DNA of 64,000 nucleotides from an uncultured Calditrichaceae bacterium. Lineage in GTDB: Bacteria; Calditrichota; Calditrichia; Calditrichales; Calditrichaceae. Under the pieces are notes generated by a model, which searched no databases, was not told the origin of the DNA, and saw only the letters and a list, made by a program, of their open reading frames with translations. The stretch spans positions 32,517 through 96,516 of the forward strand of contig CAYXRA010000002.1 of NCBI GenBank assembly GCA_964467525.1, in the 5' to 3' direction. The position numbers were made by a program, and so were the translations under genes. Position 1 is the stretch's first letter. Each line of letters opens with the position of its first letter. Of this stretch, positions 3,567-63,551 are shown piece by piece.

Positions 3567-6500
3567 ATGTTCAAAAATGTCAAAAAAGAAGAAATAACGA
3601 TTCCGGCACAGATGAGTTACCTCTTGCAGGTGCGCGAATTTATCGAGCACATCGGCAAAAAATACCGCTATGAAGACAAGCTGGTAAACTCATTCAAGCT
3701 GGTGATCGATGAGGCCTGTACCAATGTCATTCGTCATGGTTACCGCGATATCAAAAACGGTGAGATCACCATAAAAGCAATTATCCGCCGTCTCAGTCTG
3801 ACGATAATTATTGTCGACAAGGGAAAGAGTTATGATATACGTCAGGCCAACACGCCTGATCTGGCCAAATATGTGGATATCGGTAAACGGGGCGGACTGG
3901 GCATCCTAATGATGCGTAAGCTGATGGATGATATCCAGTATTCGGTTACCGAACGCGGCAATGAGATGCGCTTAACGAAATATCGCGAAAATTTGCGGGA
4001 ATCGGCCCTGATGCAGCGCTGGCAGTCGCTGAATATGCGCGTTAAATACTCGATTTTTGCATCGATCATTTTCACCCTCGTTTGTGTGATTATTTTCGCA
4101 CCGCTTTTTTTCAGCGTTAACAGCGATGTCCAGGATGAAGTGTTCAGAGCCACGGCCTCCGGAACGCGATCGCTTGCCGACAATGCGATCAATGACATGT
4201 TAAACGGTCTGGATTTTCTTTTATCCGAAAAATCCCGCTCGCTTAAAAATAACTATAAAAATATTATAGAAGAAGTTTACATTGTAGATGAAGACAGTGC
4301 AGTTATAGCTGTCGCTAATCCGGCAAAATATGATTCTCTTGGCCGGTATACGATCCCTGCGCGGGCGGCATTAGTCGATACCATTGGTCAGGTATCCATT
4401 TATAAATATCCCGTAAATGATTCGCTGGCCGTATTTGACCTGAGTACGGAGATCAGGGAAGACCTGATGGGCGGCGGCGATATTCTGGGGTATGTCCATG
4501 TCTGGATCGATCAACAGAAACTGACCGATCTGAGCAATAATAAAAAGATAAGCCTGGCCATTATTTTAACCGTTATACTGATCATTGGCTATTTAAGCGC
4601 TTTCTTCCTCATTCATCGAATCCTGATGCCTTTCCACAGTCTGGCCGACTGGGTTCGGCAGGTTGTGCGCGGCAAGGTCGATCAGGATGAAATCGACATC
4701 GATGCTTCCGACGAACTAGGTGAAATTGCCCAGGCCTTTAATGAAATGACCAATAAATTCCGCGAGGCGCAGGTTACTCTCGTGGAACAGGAAAAGCTTC
4801 AGAAAGAGCTGCAGGTTGCCCAGGAAATTCAGCAAATGCTGCTTCCCAGTGATTTTCCCCATGTAGAAGGTTATGAAATAGCTTCCTATTATGAGGCGGC
4901 CAAGGAGGTGGGCGGCGACCTGTTTGATTTTGTTGATGTCGATGAAGATACGATTGGTATTTGTGTGGCCGACGTTGCCGGTAAAGGCGTGCCCGGTTCG
5001 ATGATTATGACAATGATCCGTACGGCATTGCGCCTTGAATCCCGCGGGAATAAGAATCCGGCCGATGTACTGGCAAAGGTTAACCGCTTTGTTGCCGATG
5101 ATATGAAACGCGGTATGTTTGTTACCATGTTTTATCTTATCCTCGATTCACGCAACCGGATTATTCACTATGCCAGCGCCGGCCACAATCCTATGATCCT
5201 CTACCGCCGGTCGGCCAGGCAAACCTACTATTTGAATCCATCGGGATTTCCTGTAGGTATCCAGTTACCGGATCTGACGCTTTTTGACAGGAAAATCGAA
5301 ACCGATTCCATTCGCCTGCAGGAAGATGATATTTTAGTGCTTTATACCGACGGTATCACCGAGGCAATGAATATTGAAAGAGAGCTCTACCGCGAAGAAC
5401 GTTTCCTCGATGCCATTCGCGATAATGCGCACCTGGACGTCGGAGAGTTTGTCAAAAGCATTAACAGCGACATAAAAACATTCACCGGCGGGGCGCAGCA
5501 AAATGATGACATCACTTTTGTTTCAATCAAAGAAAAATTAATGCAGAGCGAAGTGATACTGCGCGTACATGAAAAACTGGTGAATATGATCGATAACGGT
5601 AAAACCGTTAAAGACGCACTGGAAGAATTACGCGTATCCCCGCATTTTTACTACAAACATAAAAATATTATCGACCGTAAGGGGATCGCCGGTTTAAAGC
5701 AGTATTTGGAAGAACAGGATTACATAGAAAAGAAACACCTGTCCATAGAGACCAAAGCAAAATTATTTGACATTATCCGCGAGCATCCGGACTATGGCCC
5801 GAAACGCATCTGTCATGAACTGCGCGGGGATAAATACGGCAATACCAAAATCGATGATAACCGCCTTTACAATGAACTGGTAAAAATGCGCCTGAATACC
5901 GAAGAACGACGTCGCAAATTTATTGAAAAAGGCGGAAAAAAGCGTCTGAAGCAACCGGGTACGCCGCTGCTGACACTGGATGGCCAGGTTATATTAAATT
6001 TTGAATCTGCGGAAAAACAGGTAAGCGGAGGTAAGAAAGACGAGGCCAACCAGCATTCCAAACAGATGCCGCCGCCTCCGAAACCGGATGAATCAAAACC
6101 GGTCAAAAAAGAAATTATTAAAAGTGCCGACAAACCGGAACCGGGTTTGGAAGCAGCAAGCGCTGATAAATCACCAGGTAAAATGATGCATAAACCGGCG
6201 CGTTATTTTGAATCCAAAGAGGAAGTTAAATCCGCCGATCAGCAACAGACGCTGCCCGAACCGGATAAGAAAAAATCAGAGAAAAAGAGACAGGCGCAGC
6301 CGGCTGCGGAGAAAAAGCAAATAAAAGAAAAAGAAACAAAAAAGGAAAAAGAGCCTGAAGTTGAAGCCGAAATAAGAAAAGCAACGCCGACTAAAGAAGA
6401 ACTCCTCGAACAAGTAAACGGCAGCATTGACCAGAAGAAAATCTCAAAATTCTTTTCACTCGTTGATGATGATTTGCAGGTAATTGTACAGAAAATCAGA

Positions 6501-6929
6501 AGTCTGCATCAGAGCGATCAGATCGGGCCGGACATAAAAAAAATTAATTTAATACTGAAAATTATCCTAAAACATCCGATGCTGAAAGAACTGGGATATA
6601 TAAAGCAGGTATTTGAGCAAGTTCAGGAGATTTTCGGCTTTATAGACTATCATATAGAAGAGATAGAACAGAAGGATATCTATGCAAATGTCAAAGATTT
6701 GTTGAATTATTTTGAAAAAGACAATAAATTAGGTAATTACAATAACTTGTTAGAGGCAATCAATCAGATCGGACTAATTAACAGAAAAATCCGGGCAAAA
6801 ATAAAACCCAAAGATTCAAAACAAGATGATAAAATATTAAAAATCCGGGAAAAGTTAGCCCAAAAGAAAGTAATTACAAAAAAAGAATTATTAGAATCGT
6901 TGTCAAAGGATAAAGAGGGCAGCGCCTGA
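3567..6929 (+). CDS. Fusion protein: RsbW/SpoIIAB-like Ser kinase, 2 TM with extracytoplasmic loop, HAMP, PP2C (SpoIIE/RsbU) phosphatase, HTH_21-like module, K/E/P-rich linker, helical C-terminal domain
   Basis: Kinase motifs: N-box DEACTNVIRHGY, G-boxes DKGKSYD and GGLGILMMRKLMD. TM segments YSIFASIIFTLVCVIIFAPLFF and ISLAIILTVILIIGYLSAFFLIH. HAMP-like SDELGEIAQAFNEMT. PP2C motifs EIQQMLLP, GGDLFDF, VADVAGKGVPGSMIM, YTDGITEA, NDDITFV. Then IIREHPDYGPKRICHELRG...LYNELVKMRLN. RBS-like GGACGAG lies upstream of the ATG. Confidence 0.8.
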   Translation: MFKNVKKEEITIPAQMSYLLQVREFIEHIGKKYRYEDKLVNSFKLVIDEACTNVIRHGYRDIKNGEITIKAIIRRLSLTIIIVDKGKSYDIRQANTPDLAKYVDIGKRGGLGILMMRKLMDDIQYSVTERGNEMRLTKYRENLRESALMQRWQSLNMRVKYSIFASIIFTLVCVIIFAPLFFSVNSDVQDEVFRATASGTRSLADNAINDMLNGLDFLLSEKSRSLKNNYKNIIEEVYIVDEDSAVIAVANPAKYDSLGRYTIPARAALVDTIGQVSIYKYPVNDSLAVFDLSTEIREDLMGGGDILGYVHVWIDQQKLTDLSNNKKISLAIILTVILIIGYLSAFFLIHRILMPFHSLADWVRQVVRGKVDQDEIDIDASDELGEIAQAFNEMTNKFREAQVTLVEQEKLQKELQVAQEIQQMLLPSDFPHVEGYEIASYYEAAKEVGGDLFDFVDVDEDTIGICVADVAGKGVPGSMIMTMIRTALRLESRGNKNPADVLAKVNRFVADDMKRGMFVTMFYLILDSRNRIIHYASAGHNPMILYRRSARQTYYLNPSGFPVGIQLPDLTLFDRKIETDSIRLQEDDILVLYTDGITEAMNIERELYREERFLDAIRDNAHLDVGEFVKSINSDIKTFTGGAQQNDDITFVSIKEKLMQSEVILRVHEKLVNMIDNGKTVKDALEELRVSPHFYYKHKNIIDRKGIAGLKQYLEEQDYIEKKHLSIETKAKLFDIIREHPDYGPKRICHELRGDKYGNTKIDDNRLYNELVKMRLNTEERRRKFIEKGGKKRLKQPGTPLLTLDGQVILNFESAEKQVSGGKKDEANQHSKQMPPPPKPDESKPVKKEIIKSADKPEPGLEAASADKSPGKMMHKPARYFESKEEVKSADQQQTLPEPDKKKSEKKRQAQPAAEKKQIKEKETKKEKEPEVEAEIRKATPTKEELLEQVNGSIDQKKISKFFSLVDDDLQVIVQKIRSLHQSDQIGPDIKKINLILKIILKHPMLKELGYIKQVFEQVQEIFGFIDYHIEEIEQKDIYANVKDLLNYFEKDNKLGNYNNLLEAINQIGLINRKIRAKIKPKDSKQDDKILKIREKLAQKKVITKKELLESLSKDKEGSA

Positions 6930-6958: not shown

Positions 6959-7660
6959 ATGGAAGGAATACAGGTCTCAACCGAGATCGCCGGTAGCCGG
7001 AATCACATTTCAATCATTAAAGTTGGTGGGTACATCGATACAACCACCTCATCCGAACTCGAACGGGCTTTGGATTCACTGTTAAAGCAAGGTCGTTTCT
7101 ATATTATTATCGACCTGGGTAATGTCGACTATATCAGTAGCGCCGGCTGGGGTATTTTCATCAGTGAAATTAAGTCAATCCGGGAGAACGGCGGCGATTT
7201 AAAATTGGTACGCATGGTTCCCGATGTGTATGAGATTTTCGAATTACTGGAGTTTCATCATATTCTCGATGTCTACGATACGGTAGATGAAGCTATAAAT
7301 AAGTTTGAAATGCTTGAGGCAGCGGGAAAACCGGTGGCAAAAGAAATATCCCTGCCGAAAGCCGAGCCGGAACAGGAAACTACAGGTTCCGGGGAAAAAC
7401 AAGAACGTAAAGAAACCTCTGAAGCCGTTATCGCAGAAGAAGAAAAAGAACAGGTAAATCCGGCTGACCTGAGTCTCGATGAAAAACTGAGAATGATTAT
7501 TCGTGAAAATCCCTCCTATGGGGCGTTTAAAATTAAAAAAGAGCTCAATACAGCAAAGTACGGTTATACTAAAGTAGGCTGGTTTATCGTACGTTCCGAG
7601 CTTTCCAAGTTAAACCTGAATACCCGTGCACGCAGATACGAATATGCCACCTCGTTATAA
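6959..7660 (+). CDS. STAS-domain anti-sigma-antagonist-like protein (SpoIIAA/RsbV family) with acidic linker and C-terminal HTH_21-like module
   Basis: The STAS core includes VDYISSAGWGIF, with the candidate phospho-Ser in DYISSAG, and KLVRMVPDVYEIFELLEFHHIL. An E-rich linker follows, then IIRENPSYGAFKIKKELN...VRSELSKLNLN. Strong RBS AAAGGAGG lies upstream. Confidence 0.8.
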   Translation: MEGIQVSTEIAGSRNHISIIKVGGYIDTTTSSELERALDSLLKQGRFYIIIDLGNVDYISSAGWGIFISEIKSIRENGGDLKLVRMVPDVYEIFELLEFHHILDVYDTVDEAINKFEMLEAAGKPVAKEISLPKAEPEQETTGSGEKQERKETSEAVIAEEEKEQVNPADLSLDEKLRMIIRENPSYGAFKIKKELNTAKYGYTKVGWFIVRSELSKLNLNTRARRYEYATSL

Positions 7661-56975: not shown

Positions 56976-57304
56976 AATATCAGGATAATTAAATCATCAC
57001 CCTAAATCAATTGGCTTAAGTTTTAATTAAAAATCTCGAAAGTGGAAGAACGAAAAAATGTGATTATTCGGATAAAACCACATTGTTGTTTAATTAAATT
57101 AAGGATCATTAATTCGTGAAAAAAAATCAATTTTTGGGAATTTTATGACTTAAAGCACAATTTTGTATATGTTAATTATTTTATTTAACACAAAACGAAA
57201 ATATATAATAATGTCAAATATTTTAATGAAAAAATTTATATTTCCGATATTTTAAAAGGCAGCTTATTTAATAGAGGGATCGTTTGTTAGCCAGCATTGA
57301 TACA

Positions 57305-58267
57305 ATGGAAAAACAAGAATTGAAAAACACACTGATCGTCGGCTGGAATGTCGAGGCGGTTTCGCTTTACGATCGACTTCTGGATGCCCCTTATCTTGGC
57401 TATAACGTTCGTGGGTTTATCAAGCCGGCCGGCGTTGGAAAAAGTACGCATTACAAAAATGTTCCGGTCGTAGGAGATTTGTCTGATCTGGCGGAAGTCA
57501 GTAAAAGGCTTGAAATTGCCGAGATCCTGATTGTCCTTACGGACAATGAAAAAAAGTACCTGGCTGAAGTCATCCGTGAGTGTACTAAGTACAATATCGG
57601 ATATAAAGTTGTTGCGGATACCTATGATTCTCATTATGGACATGTTGTTCGTGATATTATCAGGGACGCCTGGAAACCACAGGAATTTGGCATTCGGCGG
57701 ATACTTGATGTGGTTGGCGCTTTAGTCTTGTTGATTTTGTTGTTTCCTTTATTTATAATCGTGGCAACGGCAATTAAGCTGGAATCGCACGGACCGGTAT
57801 TTTATTCCCAGCAACGATATGGAAAAGACGGAACCATATTCGCCGTACATAAATTTCGTTCAATGGTTCAGGATGCGGAAATGCGGTCTGGGCCAGTCTG
57901 GGCGACAAAATCAGATCCAAGAATTACGAGAGTAGGCCGTTTCATGCGCAAAACCCGTATCGATGAACTGCCACAGCTAATGAATGTGCTGAAAGGAGAT
58001 ATGAGTTTTATCGGACCGCGGCCGGAACGGCCCTTTTTTGCTGATAATTTTAAAAAACAGATACCCTTCTACATGAATCGCTTACGTGTGAAACCGGGCA
58101 TTTCTGGTTTGGCACAGGTTACTGTGGGGTATGATGAAACGCTTGAGGACGTTAAGGAGAAAGTTGCCCAGGATAATGCTTATATTGAGCAGAGAGATTC
58201 ATTAAAAATGAACCTGAAAATAATCTGGAAAACATTTGCCGTTCTATTAATGGGAGAAGGACAATAA
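57305..58267 (+). CDS. Polyprenyl-phosphate glycosyl-1-phosphate transferase (Bac_transf family, EPS priming enzyme)
   Basis: [47 protein letters not shown] and [10 protein letters not shown]. The N-terminus has a CoA-binding-like fold and a single TM segment. Confidence 0.85.
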
Positions 58268-58508
58268 TTTTTGTAAAGTTGATAAATTTAACTAAAAAAA
58301 TCCCAAAAAATGGCGAATCTAAATAATAAGATAAAGTGGACACTTTATCTGAAGCGTAGAAATTTTTTTAATTTAAAAAGCGTCTCACAAAAAATTACGC
58401 TGAAATACATGTCGGCCCGTAAGCTAAGCATGTAGACATTTAAGCTTGCAGTAAAACGCCATACTGTAATTAACGGGGCGGAGCTATAAAAAAAAGGCAA
58501 TATTTGAT

Positions 58509-59321
58509 ATGGAAAAAATAAAAATTGATTCTAAATTTGCTGATCAGAGTGGCGAGATAATGGTCGTTGAATTGGGCGGCCATGTGGATCAATCCAATAG
58601 TTATCAATTACAAAAAATGTTTGATAATATCATCCAGAGCGGCTGCTTTAAGGTGATTGTCGATTTTAATGATCTGTATTACATGAGCAGCGCCGGCTGG
58701 GGTATCTTCGTCGGTGAAATCAAAAGATTCCGTGAAAACGGCGGTGATATAAAACTGGCTAATATGAATCCGGAAATTTATGATGTTTATCAAATGCTTG
58801 AATTTTATCATATACTTGAAGATTATTCAGACGTGGAAAATGCCGCCGCTTCATTCAGAAAATCCGAAAGTGAACTGGATTTGGTACTTGACTCGGATGA
58901 CGATGAAGCAGTGCCAGATAATCTGAGTGATATTGAAGAAAGCACCGAGGAAATCGAGCTTGTCGATCCCCTGATGGAAGATACTTCAGATTACTCCGGG
59001 ACGGCTGACAGTGAAGACAATGAAGTAATAGATTTTAGTTCGGAAAAAACAACCGAATTTGATGCAAACAAAAAAGGACTAACAGAGTTTATTCCGCATA
59101 CGCTTACCACAGATGTAAAACTTGCCGATCTGCCTCTGGCTGAAAAAATAAAACGGGTTGTGGCGCAAAATCCACTGGTCGGTCTTTTTGGAATCAGAAA
59201 AGTTTTGAGACATGAACAATTCGGGAAAACTAAGGTAGGCGTTTTCCGCCTTATGAGATTACTGAGGGAACTGGACCTGCATACGAAGGAAAAAAGGTAT
59301 CGTTATTATCGTTCCTGCTAA
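58509..59321 (+). CDS. STAS-domain protein, paralogue of 6959-7660, with acidic linker and C-terminal HTH_21-like module
   Basis: The STAS core LYYMSSAGWGIFVGEIKRFRENGGDIKLANMNPEIYDVYQMLEFYHIL closely matches the 6959 protein. A D/E-rich linker of ~90 aa follows, then VVAQNPLVGLFGIRKVLRHEQFGKTKVGVFRLMRLLRELDLHTKEKRYRY. Confidence 0.75.
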   Translation: MEKIKIDSKFADQSGEIMVVELGGHVDQSNSYQLQKMFDNIIQSGCFKVIVDFNDLYYMSSAGWGIFVGEIKRFRENGGDIKLANMNPEIYDVYQMLEFYHILEDYSDVENAAASFRKSESELDLVLDSDDDEAVPDNLSDIEESTEEIELVDPLMEDTSDYSGTADSEDNEVIDFSSEKTTEFDANKKGLTEFIPHTLTTDVKLADLPLAEKIKRVVAQNPLVGLFGIRKVLRHEQFGKTKVGVFRLMRLLRELDLHTKEKRYRYYRSC

Positions 59322-59337
59322 TAATAAGGAATTGAAA

Positions 59338-60045
59338 ATGCATATAAACATTTTTATGAAATTAATAATCATAATGCTGATTTTTGTCTTCGCATCGATG
59401 ACATTTGCCCAGCAAAATAATTTTAACAGTGATGAGCTCGTCGGCGATCCGGACTTAGCGGTTTACCCGTTTAAACCCGGTGATGCGATTTTTATCAGTA
59501 ATTTACCGGACACCACCTCACTTCTGAATGGCATATTTGCAATTGATGATCGCGGTTTCGCTGAATTTCCCATGATAGGGAAAGCCAATGTCAGTAAAAT
59601 GACCAGAGATGAACTCATCGAATTTTTAAAAACCAGGCTTCGGGATCAACTGAAATATCCCAACCTGTATGTAAAGCCGGTGGTTCGGATTAGCCTGCTC
59701 GGCGGTTTCAGAAGACCGGGGTTATATTATGTCGATATAAACAGTTCACTCTGGGAAACCGTCAGACTTGCCGGTGGCACGATCATGGAAGAAGGTATTT
59801 ATGAGCTGCGCTGGGAGCGGAACGGTGACGAAAAATCAGATGAAGTAGTTAAATTTTTTGAAAGCGGGACTTCATTAAAAAGAATGGGTTTCAAATCCGG
59901 CGACCAGGTCTGGACGCCGTCACCGGATAGAGAAACATTCTGGGATAAGGTACGCGATATGATGCCTATTCTGACTTTCGCCACAACAGTGTTTGTTGTG
60001 TACAGTACCTATCAGCGCGATCAGGTTCTGCTAAATCGTTATTAA
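59338..60045 (+). CDS. Polysaccharide export protein (Wza/Poly_export plus SLBB-like)
   Basis: Signal peptide, PGDAIFISNLPD (a PGD...I motif as in the Poly_export domain), and a downstream beta-grasp-like GDQVWTP. Its position directly upstream of the Wzc-like gene also supports the call. ATG follows AAGGA. Confidence 0.55.
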   Translation: MHINIFMKLIIIMLIFVFASMTFAQQNNFNSDELVGDPDLAVYPFKPGDAIFISNLPDTTSLLNGIFAIDDRGFAEFPMIGKANVSKMTRDELIEFLKTRLRDQLKYPNLYVKPVVRISLLGGFRRPGLYYVDINSSLWETVRLAGGTIMEEGIYELRWERNGDEKSDEVVKFFESGTSLKRMGFKSGDQVWTPSPDRETFWDKVRDMMPILTFATTVFVVYSTYQRDQVLLNRY

Positions 60046-60064: not shown

Positions 60065-62407
60065 ATGAAAGAAAATAGATCCAAAAGTTATTCTAGCTCT
60101 GAAAGCGGCTTTGATTTCGCCAAATATCTGAGATTGTTCAGACGAAAGAAATGGACAATTCTCACTATTTTTCTTATTGTGTTTGCTCTGTGGATGGCCT
60201 TTGCCATTAAATTCGGTCCCCGTCCCACCTACCAGGCTTATGCTTTATTACAACTGGAAGACCGGCGCGAATTATCGGCGACGACCATTGATTCCAGGGG
60301 CAGACCGCAGAACGAGGCTAAATTAGGTTTGCTGATGAGCCGTAACTTTCTGGGAAAAGTTGTAGACGAATTATCATTGCAAGTGCGCTTTAAAAATATG
60401 AACCGTTCCAGTGTAGTGGATACCGTTTTACTTGAGGACGAGTACATAAACGGAAGGTATCTGTTAAAAAAGGAAAAAGGTTATCTCCAGCTCTTTTATA
60501 CCAACCCCGAAGGAACGATCGAAAATAAACGGGTGCTTGAAGTCGTATTTCCCAAAGATAATTCCGTAGCCTATGATGGCTTCCGACTGGTGTTTAAGCC
60601 CGGTTTCTGGGATTATAATAAGGAACTTGAATTTGCCATTATCAAAAAAGCAGACGCCATCGAGGGCCTGCGTAACGCCCTGTCACCGAACTTTAGAAAC
60701 AGGGATCGCACCCTGCTTAATGTGACGATTGAAGGACCCGACCGCTTTTTTATTGCCAGGGTATTGAATGTATTGGTTGATGAGTTTGTAAAACAAAATT
60801 TAGATGTAAAAAAATACCGCACGCGGGAAGTACTCAACATCCTGACAGAACAGTTAAATACGGCTAAAAGAGATTTGGACAGGGCGGAAGAAGAGTTGAA
60901 AGAATTCCGCGAAAAATATCCCTGGGTTGGATTAACAGCAGACGCCAGTGGCGTTATTTCCGGGATGTCGACATACGAAGCGGAAAAGCGTACACTCGAA
61001 AATAACATCACCGAGCTCGATCTTTTAATATCACGCTATAATTCCAGTAACGAAAACGATAAATATCCCATTTTAAATGAAATTATTACCTTTCTTTCTG
61101 CTAAGGGGGTACCGACGGCAGCAGCGCTGGCTTCAGAGTTTGCTACGCTAACCAGCGAACGGTCCCGACTTTTGAACTCCTATGCCCCCACACACCAGGT
61201 CGTTAAAGAAAACGAGCGCAAATTGGCGGCATTGGAAGAAAAAGTATTATTGACCGCTGAAAATTATAAAAACCAGATCCGTGATAGAATAAAAGTTACC
61301 GAAAGCAAAATACAGGAAAGCAATTATAAAATCAGAAAACTTCCGGCACGGGAATTACAATTAGCCGAACTGCAGCGCAGCCGGTCCGTCGCAGATCAGA
61401 TCTATGAATCGCTGTTAGTCCGTTATAATCAGGCACAAATCGCCGATGCGGTTGAAGTAGGCGATATCATTATCCTCGATCCCGCCGTGGTGCCGCAATC
61501 GAGCAGTGAAATCAAAGTTCTGATTCGCAATGTGCTCATTGGAATTATTCTCGGACTGGGATTTGGCTTTGGATTTGTATTAATTTCAAACTTTCTCGAT
61601 AAAACAGTCCGTACCTCGGATGAGCTGGAAAAAATTATTCCGGTGCGTGTTCTGGCTAAAATTCCGGTAATCGGAGATGATAAGGACATAACCATCGAAA
61701 AAGTAGAAGACCGGGCGCGGATCGATCCAAAACTGGTTACCGCCGATTATTCACCGACCCCTGTCGGTGAAGCCTATCGTAGTTTGCGCACGCAGATTCT
61801 GTTCAATGACAGCGAACATAAGATTAAATCTTTTTTTATTACTTCGCTCAATCCGGGTGAAGGAAAATCGCTTAACGCCGGTAACATTGCGATTACCTTT
61901 GCCCAGCAGAAACTACCGACGCTAATTGTTGATGGCGATCTCCGTCGCGGGGTTTTGCACCACTCTTTTGCATGTAAAAAGAAACCGGGTTTATCGGATT
62001 TTTTGTACAGCAATGCCGATATTACCGATGAAAATATCCGCAAAATTATTCAGCAGACACATATTCCTAATCTGTATCTGCTCAGCAGCGGTATGCCCAT
62101 TCCCAATCCTTCGGAAATCCTGGGCAGTCAGCGCGGCCGTGATGTCATACAATTTTTAACGAAAAGATTTGGATTTGTGATTATAGATACGCCGCCGATT
62201 ATGGTAACTTCCGATGCTATCATCATTTCACAATATGTGGATAGCGGGCTGTTTGTGGTTCGTGCCGGAAAATCAAATGTTGATCAGATAAAAGATAAAA
62301 TTTCAGAATACAAAGATTTCTCGAAGAAATTATCCGGTATTCTTTTAAACTTTGCCAAACTGGATATAAAGAAGAGCGCCTATCGCTATTCATATTATAA
62401 CTATTAA
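60065..62407 (+). CDS. Wzc/GumC-like polysaccharide co-polymerase fused to BY-kinase (chain-length determinant plus tyrosine autokinase)
   Basis: N-terminal Wzz-like TM segment, a long periplasmic coiled coil and a second TM segment. The kinase part has Walker A SLNPGEGKS, Walker A' LIVDGDLRR, Walker B VIIDTPP and a C-terminal Tyr cluster (YRYSYYNY). Confidence 0.85.
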   Translation: MKENRSKSYSSSESGFDFAKYLRLFRRKKWTILTIFLIVFALWMAFAIKFGPRPTYQAYALLQLEDRRELSATTIDSRGRPQNEAKLGLLMSRNFLGKVVDELSLQVRFKNMNRSSVVDTVLLEDEYINGRYLLKKEKGYLQLFYTNPEGTIENKRVLEVVFPKDNSVAYDGFRLVFKPGFWDYNKELEFAIIKKADAIEGLRNALSPNFRNRDRTLLNVTIEGPDRFFIARVLNVLVDEFVKQNLDVKKYRTREVLNILTEQLNTAKRDLDRAEEELKEFREKYPWVGLTADASGVISGMSTYEAEKRTLENNITELDLLISRYNSSNENDKYPILNEIITFLSAKGVPTAAALASEFATLTSERSRLLNSYAPTHQVVKENERKLAALEEKVLLTAENYKNQIRDRIKVTESKIQESNYKIRKLPARELQLAELQRSRSVADQIYESLLVRYNQAQIADAVEVGDIIILDPAVVPQSSSEIKVLIRNVLIGIILGLGFGFGFVLISNFLDKTVRTSDELEKIIPVRVLAKIPVIGDDKDITIEKVEDRARIDPKLVTADYSPTPVGEAYRSLRTQILFNDSEHKIKSFFITSLNPGEGKSLNAGNIAITFAQQKLPTLIVDGDLRRGVLHHSFACKKKPGLSDFLYSNADITDENIRKIIQQTHIPNLYLLSSGMPIPNPSEILGSQRGRDVIQFLTKRFGFVIIDTPPIMVTSDAIIISQYVDSGLFVVRAGKSNVDQIKDKISEYKDFSKKLSGILLNFAKLDIKKSAYRYSYYNY

Positions 62408-62519: not shown

Positions 62520-63551
62520 ATGCAAGTTAAGTATTTGACCGAAGCAGAATACGATCGGTGGGATGATTATGTGGACAACCATCCCGGGTCAAAAATATAT
62601 CATAAAATTGCCTGGAAAAAAATAATTGAGCAGGCTTTCGAAAAAAAGTCCTTATATTTTTATGTGGAACAGGAAGGACAGATTCGGGGAATCATGCCCT
62701 TGATAAAGTTCTCAGGCTTTTTGACCGGTAAGGTTTTGATATCGTTGCCATTTGTGAACTACGGCGGTATGATTTACGATAATGAAAAGGTTAGGGATGC
62801 CATTTTAGCAGAATTACAGGAAGTCCGTGAAAGAGAAGACGCCGATTCCGTGGAATTGCGCACATCGGGATATCAGCAATTCGAATTGCCGGAACGGTCA
62901 AATAAGATCACATTTTTGATGGACCTTCCCGATTCAACGGATGAACTCATGAAACAGTTCAAATCCAAAGTACGCAGTCAGATCCGCCGGCCTGAAAAAG
63001 AAGAAATGTATGTAAAGTGCGGCGGCAGTGAACTGCTTGACGGATTCTATCGAATATTTTGCAGAAATATGCGGGATTTGGGTACGCCCGTTTACGGTAA
63101 GAAATTTTTTAAAACAATTTTAAATGAAATTCCTGATCATTCAAATATTATCACCGTATATACCAAAAATCATCTGCCGGTAGCAAGCGCTTTTATTATC
63201 GGTTACGGTAATATTATGGAGATACCATGGGCCTCATCATTGAGGGAATACAATCGTTATAGTCCGAATATGCTGCTTTATTGGGAAGTTATGTCCGAAG
63301 CGATCCGTCAGGGCCGGAAAATTTTCGATTTTGGCCGCGGCACCAAAGACGGCGGGACATATCGCTTCAAAAAACAATGGGGCGGTGAAGAAGTGCAGCT
63401 GCGCTGGTATTATCTGTTGGCGGAAGAAGCAGCTATGCCCGAACTTAATAAAGAAAACCCCAAATATGCTCTGGCAATCAGAGCCTGGCAAAAAATACCG
63501 CTTTCACTTGCAAATTTAATCGGACCTGTCATTATAAAAAATATACCATAA
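62520..63551 (+). CDS. FemAB-like acyltransferase-fold protein (resembles the PEP-CTERM-system-associated FemAB family)
   Basis: WDDYVDNHPGSKIYHKIAWKKII...GIMPLIKFSGFLTGKVLISLPFVNYGG and C-terminal YRFKKQWG resemble that family as I recall it. Confidence 0.65.
   Translation: MQVKYLTEAEYDRWDDYVDNHPGSKIYHKIAWKKIIEQAFEKKSLYFYVEQEGQIRGIMPLIKFSGFLTGKVLISLPFVNYGGMIYDNEKVRDAILAELQEVREREDADSVELRTSGYQQFELPERSNKITFLMDLPDSTDELMKQFKSKVRSQIRRPEKEEMYVKCGGSELLDGFYRIFCRNMRDLGTPVYGKKFFKTILNEIPDHSNIITVYTKNHLPVASAFIIGYGNIMEIPWASSLREYNRYSPNMLLYWEVMSEAIRQGRKIFDFGRGTKDGGTYRFKKQWGGEEVQLRWYYLLAEEAAMPELNKENPKYALAIRAWQKIPLSLANLIGPVIIKNIP

Follow-up and report, generated by a model that had tools for sequence, protein, structure and literature searches.

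Control of polysaccharide by STAS-domain phospho-switches has been described in distantly separated systems. In the syp polysaccharide locus of Vibrio fischeri, the STAS protein SypA is governed by a bifunctional controller, SypE, without a sigma factor (PMC4517449), and in Anabaena PCC 7120 the HenR/Alr3423/All4160 system places a STAS phospho-switch on a polysaccharide pathway, likewise without a sigma factor (PMC13555669). In a further system, CapK/CapS, the STAS protein CapS carries a winged helix-turn-helix (HTH) domain and acts as a repressor that is released by serine phosphorylation, and the kinase CapK also bears an HTH domain (Chambers et al. 2026, PMC13373217). Here, we analyze the STAS-2 gene in a stretch of 64,000 nucleotides (the window) from an uncultured Calditrichaceae bacterium (GenBank assembly GCA_964467525.1, contig CAYXRA010000002.1, positions 32,517 to 96,516 of the forward strand). 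In the STAS-2 protein, an acidic, disordered linker connects a STAS domain with a basic C-terminal module (CTM) that is HTH-like; the gene is positioned within an exopolysaccharide (EPS) locus, between the gene of a priming transferase (BacT) and the Wza-like and Wzc-like export genes. The same rare module is found in a paralogue, STAS-1, and in a membrane protein encoded immediately upstream of STAS-1, which combines an RsbW-like kinase, a HAMP domain and a PP2C phosphatase and is referred to below as the fusion. It is plausible that this one sensor has two STAS outputs, one of them for EPS.

A sequence-only reading of this DNA had held that partner-switching control of polysaccharide has precedent in other phyla, to which SypA/SypE and HenR/All4160 attest, and also that the architecture was without a known counterpart, which we do not uphold, as the three systems named above are close analogues. 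As in the syp system, the STAS protein has a conserved phospho-serine position and its gene precedes the export genes of a polysaccharide locus, and SypE resembles the fusion in combining an RsbW-like kinase at the N-terminus with a PP2C domain at the C-terminus of a single bifunctional protein. However, SypA is a single STAS domain, to which STAS-2 adds an acidic linker of 80-190 aa and the HTH-like CTM; and SypE, the gene of which belongs to the locus of its substrate, has a receiver domain at its center, whereas the fusion has a transmembrane (TM)-HAMP input and HTH modules, and its gene is adjacent to STAS-1 and unlinked to STAS-2. CapS shares with STAS-2 the arrangement of a STAS domain followed by a C-terminal domain (DNA-binding in CapS), the position of the gene upstream of the operon that it regulates (presumably so for STAS-2) and a conserved serine on helix alpha2, which in CapS is phosphorylated by an RsbW-like GHKL kinase with an HTH domain. 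Its published description nevertheless sets CapS apart: it is a compact protein of 184 aa with a MarR/ArsR-type winged HTH, unlike STAS-2 with its long disordered linker and transposase-type (HTH_21/HTH_32/Tc3-like) module, and it controls immune operons and not EPS. CapK, for its part, is adjacent to CapS and has no phosphatase domain, whereas the presumed enzyme of STAS-2 is unlinked and includes a PP2C domain.

The Anabaena system is similar in that its kinase is unlinked to the substrate; a feature of that system is that the non-phosphorylatable form is active. It is different in that the STAS domain of All4160, like that of XssP-type STAS-glycosyltransferases, is covalently fused to a glycosyltransferase, whereas STAS-2 is a separate gene beside BacT, and in that its phosphatase and kinase are separate proteins without an HTH module. 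With the SpoIIAA/SpoIIAB/SpoIIE and RsbV/RsbW/RsbU modules, the proteins analyzed here have in common the STAS fold, the phospho-serine position and the chemistry of an RsbW-type kinase and a PP2C phosphatase. Unlike in those modules, no sigma factor gene was found among the genes read beside STAS-2 and STAS-1 (sugar transferase, Wza-like, fusion and DUF456), a single membrane protein includes both the kinase and the phosphatase, and the STAS proteins have an extra output domain. Partner-switching control of polysaccharide is therefore already known, and so, since 2026, are STAS-HTH regulators. The new elements are a STAS domain that is combined, through an acidic disordered linker, with a transposase-type module; the occurrence of one rare module on a bifunctional membrane enzyme and on exactly two presumed substrates across at least 45 sampled genera of Calditrichota; the separation of an EPS-dedicated substrate from its presumed enzyme; and a conserved gene position, with the priming transferase on one side and Wza/Wzc on the other.

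STAS-2 and its exopolysaccharide locus

By domain matches, predicted structure and alignment, STAS-2 is a SpoIIAA/RsbV-class STAS protein of the phosphorylatable type, in which the predicted phospho-acceptor serine, S61, is intact. The PF01740 match extends over aa 12-112 (E=1.6e-15; 57.2 bits, cut-off 22.6), and the anti-sigma-factor antagonist model TIGR00377 is matched at 65.1 bits (cut-off 53.45). In the AlphaFold2 (AF2) model, aa 1-122 have a predicted local distance difference test score (pLDDT) of about 90, and the best Foldseek matches of the STAS domain were SpoIIAA in complex with SpoIIAB, TM1442 and RsbV (1TID_B, 1VC1 and 6M36), with target-normalised TM-scores of 0.8-0.9 and E from 2e-8 to 1e-6; phmmer matches in the PDB at E<=0.01 were limited to SpoIIAA, RsbV and TM-type STAS proteins. 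The objection that the conserved serine might be lost on proper alignment, which had been raised together with the first description of STAS-2, fails because S61 aligns with S58 of SpoIIAA (the site mutated in 1TID) and with S56 of RsbV and lies in an essentially invariant block. All 26 of the aligned orthologues have both S60 and S61, and across this alignment the block YMSSAGWG...GEIKRFRxxGGDIKL is essentially unchanged and the N-terminus MEKxxIDSKFAD is also kept. An equivalent of S61 is present in all nine other STAS paralogues of the genome as well.

The position of this STAS-HTH paralogue inside an EPS export locus, as proposed from the sequence alone, was confirmed by its open reading frame (ORF), its STAS match and its neighbors. 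BacT matches Bac_transf (E=3.7e-66) and TIGR03025 (337 bits, cut-off 295.55), the Wza-like protein matches Poly_export at 26.7 bits, slightly below the cut-off of 28, the Wzc-like protein matches TIGR01007 (166.5 bits, cut-off 108), and the FemAB-family protein that follows matches TIGR03019 (364 bits, cut-off 260). BacT and STAS-2 are separated by 241 nt. Between the STAS-2 stop codon, which ends at 59321, and the ATG of the Wza-like gene at 59338 there are 16 nt, as had been counted before, and this gap contains an AAGGA Shine-Dalgarno sequence; a scan for terminator-like sites found none between the two genes. In the scan for sigma-70 promoters and terminators, nothing exceeded the shuffled controls.

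Conservation of this arrangement is broad. Orthologues of STAS-2 were found in about 33 of 41 relatives across the family, order and class, and those of STAS-1 in nearly all. The gene order BacT-STAS2-Wza(-Wzc) was observed in 19 of 19 near relatives; at 38 loci of a species-representative collection, a set that overlaps with these 19, STAS-2 (identity down to 33%) is followed by Wza, Wzc and usually FemAB wherever the DNA reaches. Deeper lineages have a gene for an XrtA-type polysaccharide deacetylase, in some cases together with one for an acyl-CoA ligase, between BacT and STAS-2, and at one locus (L059) the start of STAS-2 overlaps the preceding EPS gene by 4 nt. Six genomes without STAS-2, two of them 99% and 94% complete, are also without the orthologous Wzc and keep only a paralogue of it (29-35%), yet they retain the fusion and STAS-1. 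To judge from this phylum-wide synteny, STAS-2 is embedded in one EPS export locus and is co-inherited and lost with it. An exception was observed in a complete genome (G052), in which a 910-aa protein (L098:4536-7268) consists of Glyco_hydro_3, Glyco_hydro_3_C, a STAS domain and a STAS-2-type CTM.

Several features of these loci were observed in passing. BacT is short (327 aa), and its TIGR03025 match begins only at model position 122, so that it is without the usual N-terminal membrane segment; it retains a CoA_binding_3-like region, followed by the Bac_transf domain. In the EPS locus of relatives, the deacetylase is above the cut-off of TIGR03006 (L059:5505-6350), and the acyl-CoA ligase is TIGR03098-like, below the cut-off (L059:6448-7992). 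Despite such XrtA-associated families at the EPS locus, no match to the exosortase family PF09721 was found in the genome of the window, which is 99.6% complete. At the locus L098, an asparagine synthase (GATase_7 and Asn_synthase; L098:7458-9878) bears a Por_Secre_tail domain (E=3.9e-12), a sorting domain of the type IX secretion system, and such a C-terminal tail is odd for a cytoplasmic-type enzyme.

The shared module and a candidate enzyme in trans

No kinase or phosphatase gene lies beside STAS-2. Pfam scans of the genome revealed one SpoIIE and one HATPase_c_2 match on the 100.9-kb contig, both in the fusion and about 51.6 kb upstream of STAS-2, in agreement with the distance of about 52 kb given earlier. 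It had also been considered that a dedicated pair might be encoded past the window. The final 4.36 kb of the contig, which encode a GNAT-like protein, a family 2 glycosyltransferase, an unknown protein and an aminotransferase, contain neither a kinase nor a phosphatase gene, and tblastn at the 38 loci and up to 8 kb of flanking DNA, for which the full set of 13 PP2C and 5 RsbW domains served as queries, detected no PP2C gene at any locus and three RsbW-like genes, all outside the operon.

A link between STAS-2 and the fusion is suggested by the CTM. A tblastn search of the 5.0-Mb genome located exactly three copies of this module, one each in STAS-1, STAS-2 and the fusion, and a CTM profile run on 61 Calditrichota genomes of 45 genera never gave more than three copies, which belonged to the same three classes. 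In hhalign comparisons, the CTM of STAS-2 aligned with that of STAS-1 at 99.7% probability (E=2.8e-25) and with the module of the fusion at 97.7% probability (E=1.4e-12). STAS-1 and STAS-2 are 32% identical over the full length (BLASTP E=2e-50) and, as the earlier reading had noted, have the motifs SSAGWGIF, ENGGD(L/I)KL and EF(H/Y)HIL in common. Of the 11 STAS proteins of the genome, only those of the STAS-1 and STAS-2 families have the conserved residues W64, E70, E98 and H101, of which W64 and E70 are positioned on helix alpha2 beside S61. A single fusion gene is present in 40 of 41 relatives, and its downstream neighbor is always STAS-1, the STAS domain of which is almost invariant across the class. 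Because of the shared rare CTM, the shared signature residues and the lack of a local enzyme, the fusion is the best candidate enzyme for STAS-2, although the case is circumstantial. A single sensor with two STAS outputs is made plausible by the confinement of the CTM to three proteins, together with the absence of PP2C genes near STAS-2. The proximity of 52 kb between the fusion and STAS-2 is not conserved, and three relatives with long assemblies have distances of about 187 kb, 279 kb and about 2 Mb between the two.

The fusion comprises 1120 aa, with Pfam matches to HATPase_c_2 (aa 12-138), HAMP (347-397) and SpoIIE (460-655), and its hydrophobic segments, which start at about aa 157-171 and 322-338 in 19-residue windows, flank a loop of ~140 aa. 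An N-box and a G-rich box in the kinase part, and GGDLFD, ADVAGKG, YTDGITE and NDDITF in the PP2C part, are what we take to be the characteristic motifs of these families. Past the PP2C domain, aa about 665-810 (window 5560-6000) hold tandem HTH modules arranged like the N-terminus of an IS481 transposase, and these are followed by an invariant motif, LK(Q/P)PGTPLLTLDG, and a K/E-rich tail of ~330 aa without a recognised domain.

The linker and the CTM of STAS-2 are opposite in charge. In the linker, pLDDT is below 50 at aa 123-192 and 196-201 of the AF2 model, and across the 26 orthologues its length varies from 78 to 194 aa and its net charge is always negative (-5 to -25); the CTM has a net charge of +6 to +13 in the orthologues, with K262, R263, R265 and R268 invariant and the terminus KRYRYYRS(C/A) nearly so. 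We read the CTM as a transposase-derived HTH-like domain and infer from this likeness that it may bind DNA. The CTM of STAS-1 matches HTH_21 (PF13276; E=0.034, 14.8 bits, below the gathering score of 28.1), the fusion has a weak Pfam match to HTH_32 (PF13565; E=0.03), and aa 671-784 of the fusion match the N-terminal DNA-binding region of the IS481 transposase (E=7.5e-6, below the cut-off). Remote members of the CTM family reach HTH_Tnp_Tc3_2, HTH_21 and HTH_32, one of them (P0067) matching HTH_Tnp_Tc3_2 (PF01498) at 29.7 bits against a cut-off of 31.5. A PDB profile search with the HTH region of the fusion gave no meaningful match. Among 1.84 billion representative proteins, CTM matches at E<=1e-3 were restricted to 240 clusters; nearly all of these matches are C-terminal, and 8 of 10 proteins scanned with Pfam have a STAS domain. 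The tail YRYY of the CTM was also considered as a mimic of the C-terminal tyrosine cluster of Wzc (YRYSYYNY). Since some orthologues have Phe or His at any given one of its tyrosine positions, the tail is better described as an aromatic/basic helix with no conserved phospho-tyrosine site.

Table 1. Positions (numbered from the first nucleotide of the window) of STAS-2, its parts and neighbors, and the candidate enzyme with STAS-1
Feature	Position	Strand	Basis or remark
Candidate trans-acting enzyme (fusion): RsbW-like kinase, TM, sensor loop, TM, HAMP, PP2C, two HTH modules, K/E-rich tail	3567..6929	+	Pfam
CTM-homologous HTH module within the fusion	5733..5921	+	tblastn, hhalign, CTM profile match at contig C2:38249-38437
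STAS-1, same STAS-linker-CTM architecture, directly downstream of the fusion gene	6959..7660	+	Pfam STAS E=6.1e-21
Priming polyprenyl glycosylphosphotransferase (BacT)	57284..58267 (ATG 57305 = alternative start)	+	Bac_transf, TIGR03025
Conserved non-palindromic 27-bp motif CTGTAATTAACGGGGCGGAGCTATAAA, candidate promoter/operator of the STAS-2/wza/wzc unit	58464..58490	+	Ends 18 nt before ATG
STAS-2 gene (STAS, acidic disordered linker, CTM)	58509..59321	+	ORF of 270 aa; Pfam and NCBIfam matches
STAS domain, SpoIIAA/RsbV class (aa 12-112)	58542..58844	+	PF01740
Ser61 codon, predicted phospho-acceptor	58689..58691	+	Alignment to SpoIIAA S58, RsbV S56
Acidic disordered linker (aa 123-201)	58875..59111	+	Low pLDDT
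CTM, basic four-helix HTH-like domain (aa 205-270), KRYRYYRSC at the end	59121..59318	+	AF2 pLDDT 81-90
Wza-like outer-membrane polysaccharide export protein	59338..60045	+	Poly_export-like; 16 nt past STAS-2
Wzc-like chain-length determinant fused to BY tyrosine autokinase	60065..62407	+	Pfam Wzz, GNVR, AAA_31
FemAB-family protein, XrtA/PEP-CTERM-associated type	62520..63551	+	TIGR03019

The proposed switch and competing explanations

We propose that one EPS locus has a serine-phosphorylation switch of its own, of which STAS-2 would be the output protein. The single membrane RsbW-HAMP-PP2C sensor encoded with STAS-1 would act in trans on S61, adding and removing the phosphoryl group, and the phosphorylation state of S61 would alter how the basic CTM engages its target. 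In a CapS-like output, STAS-2 would bind DNA at the EPS promoter region and set transcription of the STAS-2/wza/wzc unit, with the 27-bp motif just ahead of its own start codon as the candidate binding site. An envelope signal sensed by the fusion would in this way act as an on/off control of polysaccharide export, alongside any target of STAS-1. Taken as a whole, from the fusion to the transcriptional output, this proposal is our leading one, and we hold it tentatively, at somewhat less than an even chance.

The observations that weigh against this proposal concern, in part, the enzyme. The earlier reading had suggested a genome-wide search for further STAS-HTH paralogues and RsbW/SpoIIE proteins. 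The CTM proved to be confined to the three proteins described above, and the genome has 13 SpoIIE genes and about five strong HATPase_c_2 matches, that is, 12 PP2C proteins and about four RsbW-like kinases besides the fusion. On contig C162, an RsbW-like kinase gene is an orphan, with no STAS gene next to it, and the STAS protein of an RsbU/V/W-like operon on contig C105 has a very similar phospho-site, YISSAGLG. STAS-2 might then be phospho-regulated by the C162 kinase or the C105 set together with one of the 12 other PP2Cs, the CTM shared by STAS-1 and STAS-2 being due to their common descent. The Anabaena system, in which the in vivo kinase gene is unlinked to the substrate gene (PMC13555669), also fits with such an explanation, as do three distant relatives in which STAS-2 is preceded, at a distance of 3-4 kb, by an RsbW-like kinase gene (L049:4252-4761, L053:978-1880 and L058 about 3850-4185). 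These three kinase genes, however, lie outside the EPS operon, past an opposite-strand gene, and 35 of the 38 STAS-2 loci are without an adjacent kinase. In addition, common descent of STAS-1 and STAS-2 leaves the CTM on the fusion enzyme unexplained, the signature residues beside S61 are common to STAS-1 only, and a C162-type kinase is present with or without STAS-2. We therefore consider regulation of STAS-2 by enzymes other than the fusion unlikely. Co-loss of the C162 kinase with STAS-2 was also examined, and this test was uninformative because the kinase was present in 12 of 12 genomes tested, irrespective of STAS-2. At the three loci with an upstream kinase, which belong to one deep lineage, the kinase gene follows a prephenate dehydrogenase gene, and the gene that separates it from the EPS operon encodes a CDP-alcohol phosphatidyltransferase.

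Other points of the same kind concern the output. The CTM of STAS-2 matches no HTH family in Pfam, the CTM matches elsewhere fall below the Pfam cut-offs, and Foldseek with the isolated CTM model found nothing significant (best E=1.4), the top weak matches, with E of 1.4-3, being the winged-helix regulators LmrR/PadR and FapR and the Pax paired domain. The fusion is predicted to be polytopic in the membrane, a topology that fits poorly with DNA binding by the module that it shares, and the gene of the GH3-STAS-CTM protein of G052 lies away from Wza/Wzc genes. Alternatively, the same fusion-driven switch might have a protein-protein output, in which unphosphorylated STAS-2 would bind and activate BacT, Wzc or Wza, and the CTM would dock STAS-1 and STAS-2 on the fusion and thus provide substrate specificity. 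Such an output is favored by the precedent of SypA, which exerts its effect downstream of transcription and loses activity when SypE phosphorylates it at S56 (PMC4517449), by the cyanobacterial STAS domain fused to an EPS glycosyltransferase under the control of a PP2C phosphatase and an RsbW-like kinase, by the natural GH3-STAS-CTM fusion and by the membrane location of the enzyme; moreover, a module carried by a membrane protein and found only in one enzyme and its two presumed substrates is as expected of a mutual recognition domain. Against docking, the relatives of the CTM are DNA-binding transposase HTH domains, and the CTM is strongly basic. On balance, a protein-protein output appears possible but doubtful, and the transcriptional output is ranked slightly higher because of the CapS precedent, the ancestry and charge of the CTM and the gene position.

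The candidate binding site bears on the transcriptional output in both directions. Across near relatives, the motif has the form CTGTAATT(G/A)ACGGGGCGGAGCTATAAA and in most of them lies 19-32 nt ahead of the STAS-2 ATG. Its 20-nt core is present in seven copies in the genome of the window and in four copies in a complete relative (G005), and the reversed control pattern gave 0; in both genomes, a copy also precedes a second Wza-like gene, of 813 aa. These features of the motif, like the acidic linker and the basic CTM of STAS-2, count in favor of a DNA-binding output. The motif is non-palindromic, however, it is absent from deeper or distant lineages and from the fusion/STAS-1 operon, and it precedes unrelated genes as well, which encode an XRE-like ORF, MNT-type nucleotidyltransferases and a tyrosine recombinase. 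We regard it as probably a specialised promoter or operator, and a connection with the HTH modules is speculative. A PRiA4_ORF3-like gene is likewise preceded by a copy. The other copies in the own genome are located at C41:3332, C86:831, C155:5793, C163:3110, C175:1537 and C230:1735, and further copies in G005 at 1196665, 4068195 and 4072183; in five copies, this low-copy motif of 20-27 bp (TGTAAYTRACRKGGCGGAGC) lies 19-38 nt before a start codon. Two other candidate elements in the gap between BacT and STAS-2 were rejected. A perfect palindrome with 10-bp arms at 58329-58350 is unlikely to be a conserved operator, as none of the aligned relatives conserves it, and for an RNA element in the 241-nt gap there was no Rfam match and, by eye only, no consistent hairpin around the motif.

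It may also be asked whether STAS-2 is phosphorylated at all. If it served the EPS locus constitutively, as an adaptor or a ligand-binding subunit, the serine would be kept for structural reasons; many STAS proteins function without phosphorylation, and Vibrio vulnificus and Vibrio parahaemolyticus have SypA orthologues but no sypE (PMC4517449). Such a role seems very improbable to us, given that the YMSSAGWG site and helix alpha2 are invariant phylum-wide, that the nearest structures are the phosphorylatable SpoIIAA and RsbV, and that a kinase/phosphatase bearing the family-specific CTM co-occurs in every genome.

Beyond the proposal of a CapS-like switch, a bolder scheme may be considered, in which a domesticated transposase HTH serves as a private address label on one membrane kinase/phosphatase and exactly two STAS substrates across at least 45 sampled Calditrichota genera. 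One envelope sensor would then be wired to two outputs, either by tethering or by joint assembly on DNA sites such as the 27-bp motif, and STAS-2 would gate the export genes directly, without a sigma factor. This scheme is speculative, and we would not expect it to hold in full.

Significance for STAS regulation in Calditrichota

How STAS proteins control polysaccharide without a sigma factor is a mechanism that is open for SypA and partly solved for All4160. The STAS switch described here has a recognisable output domain that is also found on the presumed enzyme, and it may thus offer a handle on how a substrate is chosen among 11 STAS paralogues. Similarly, the shared module provides a handle on what the STAS output contacts, DNA or the export machinery. 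As the protein family is distributed phylum-wide and Caldithrix abyssi is cultured, the prediction is testable. For genome annotation, genes of this family that would be labeled "STAS domain protein" may be described as regulators of an EPS locus.

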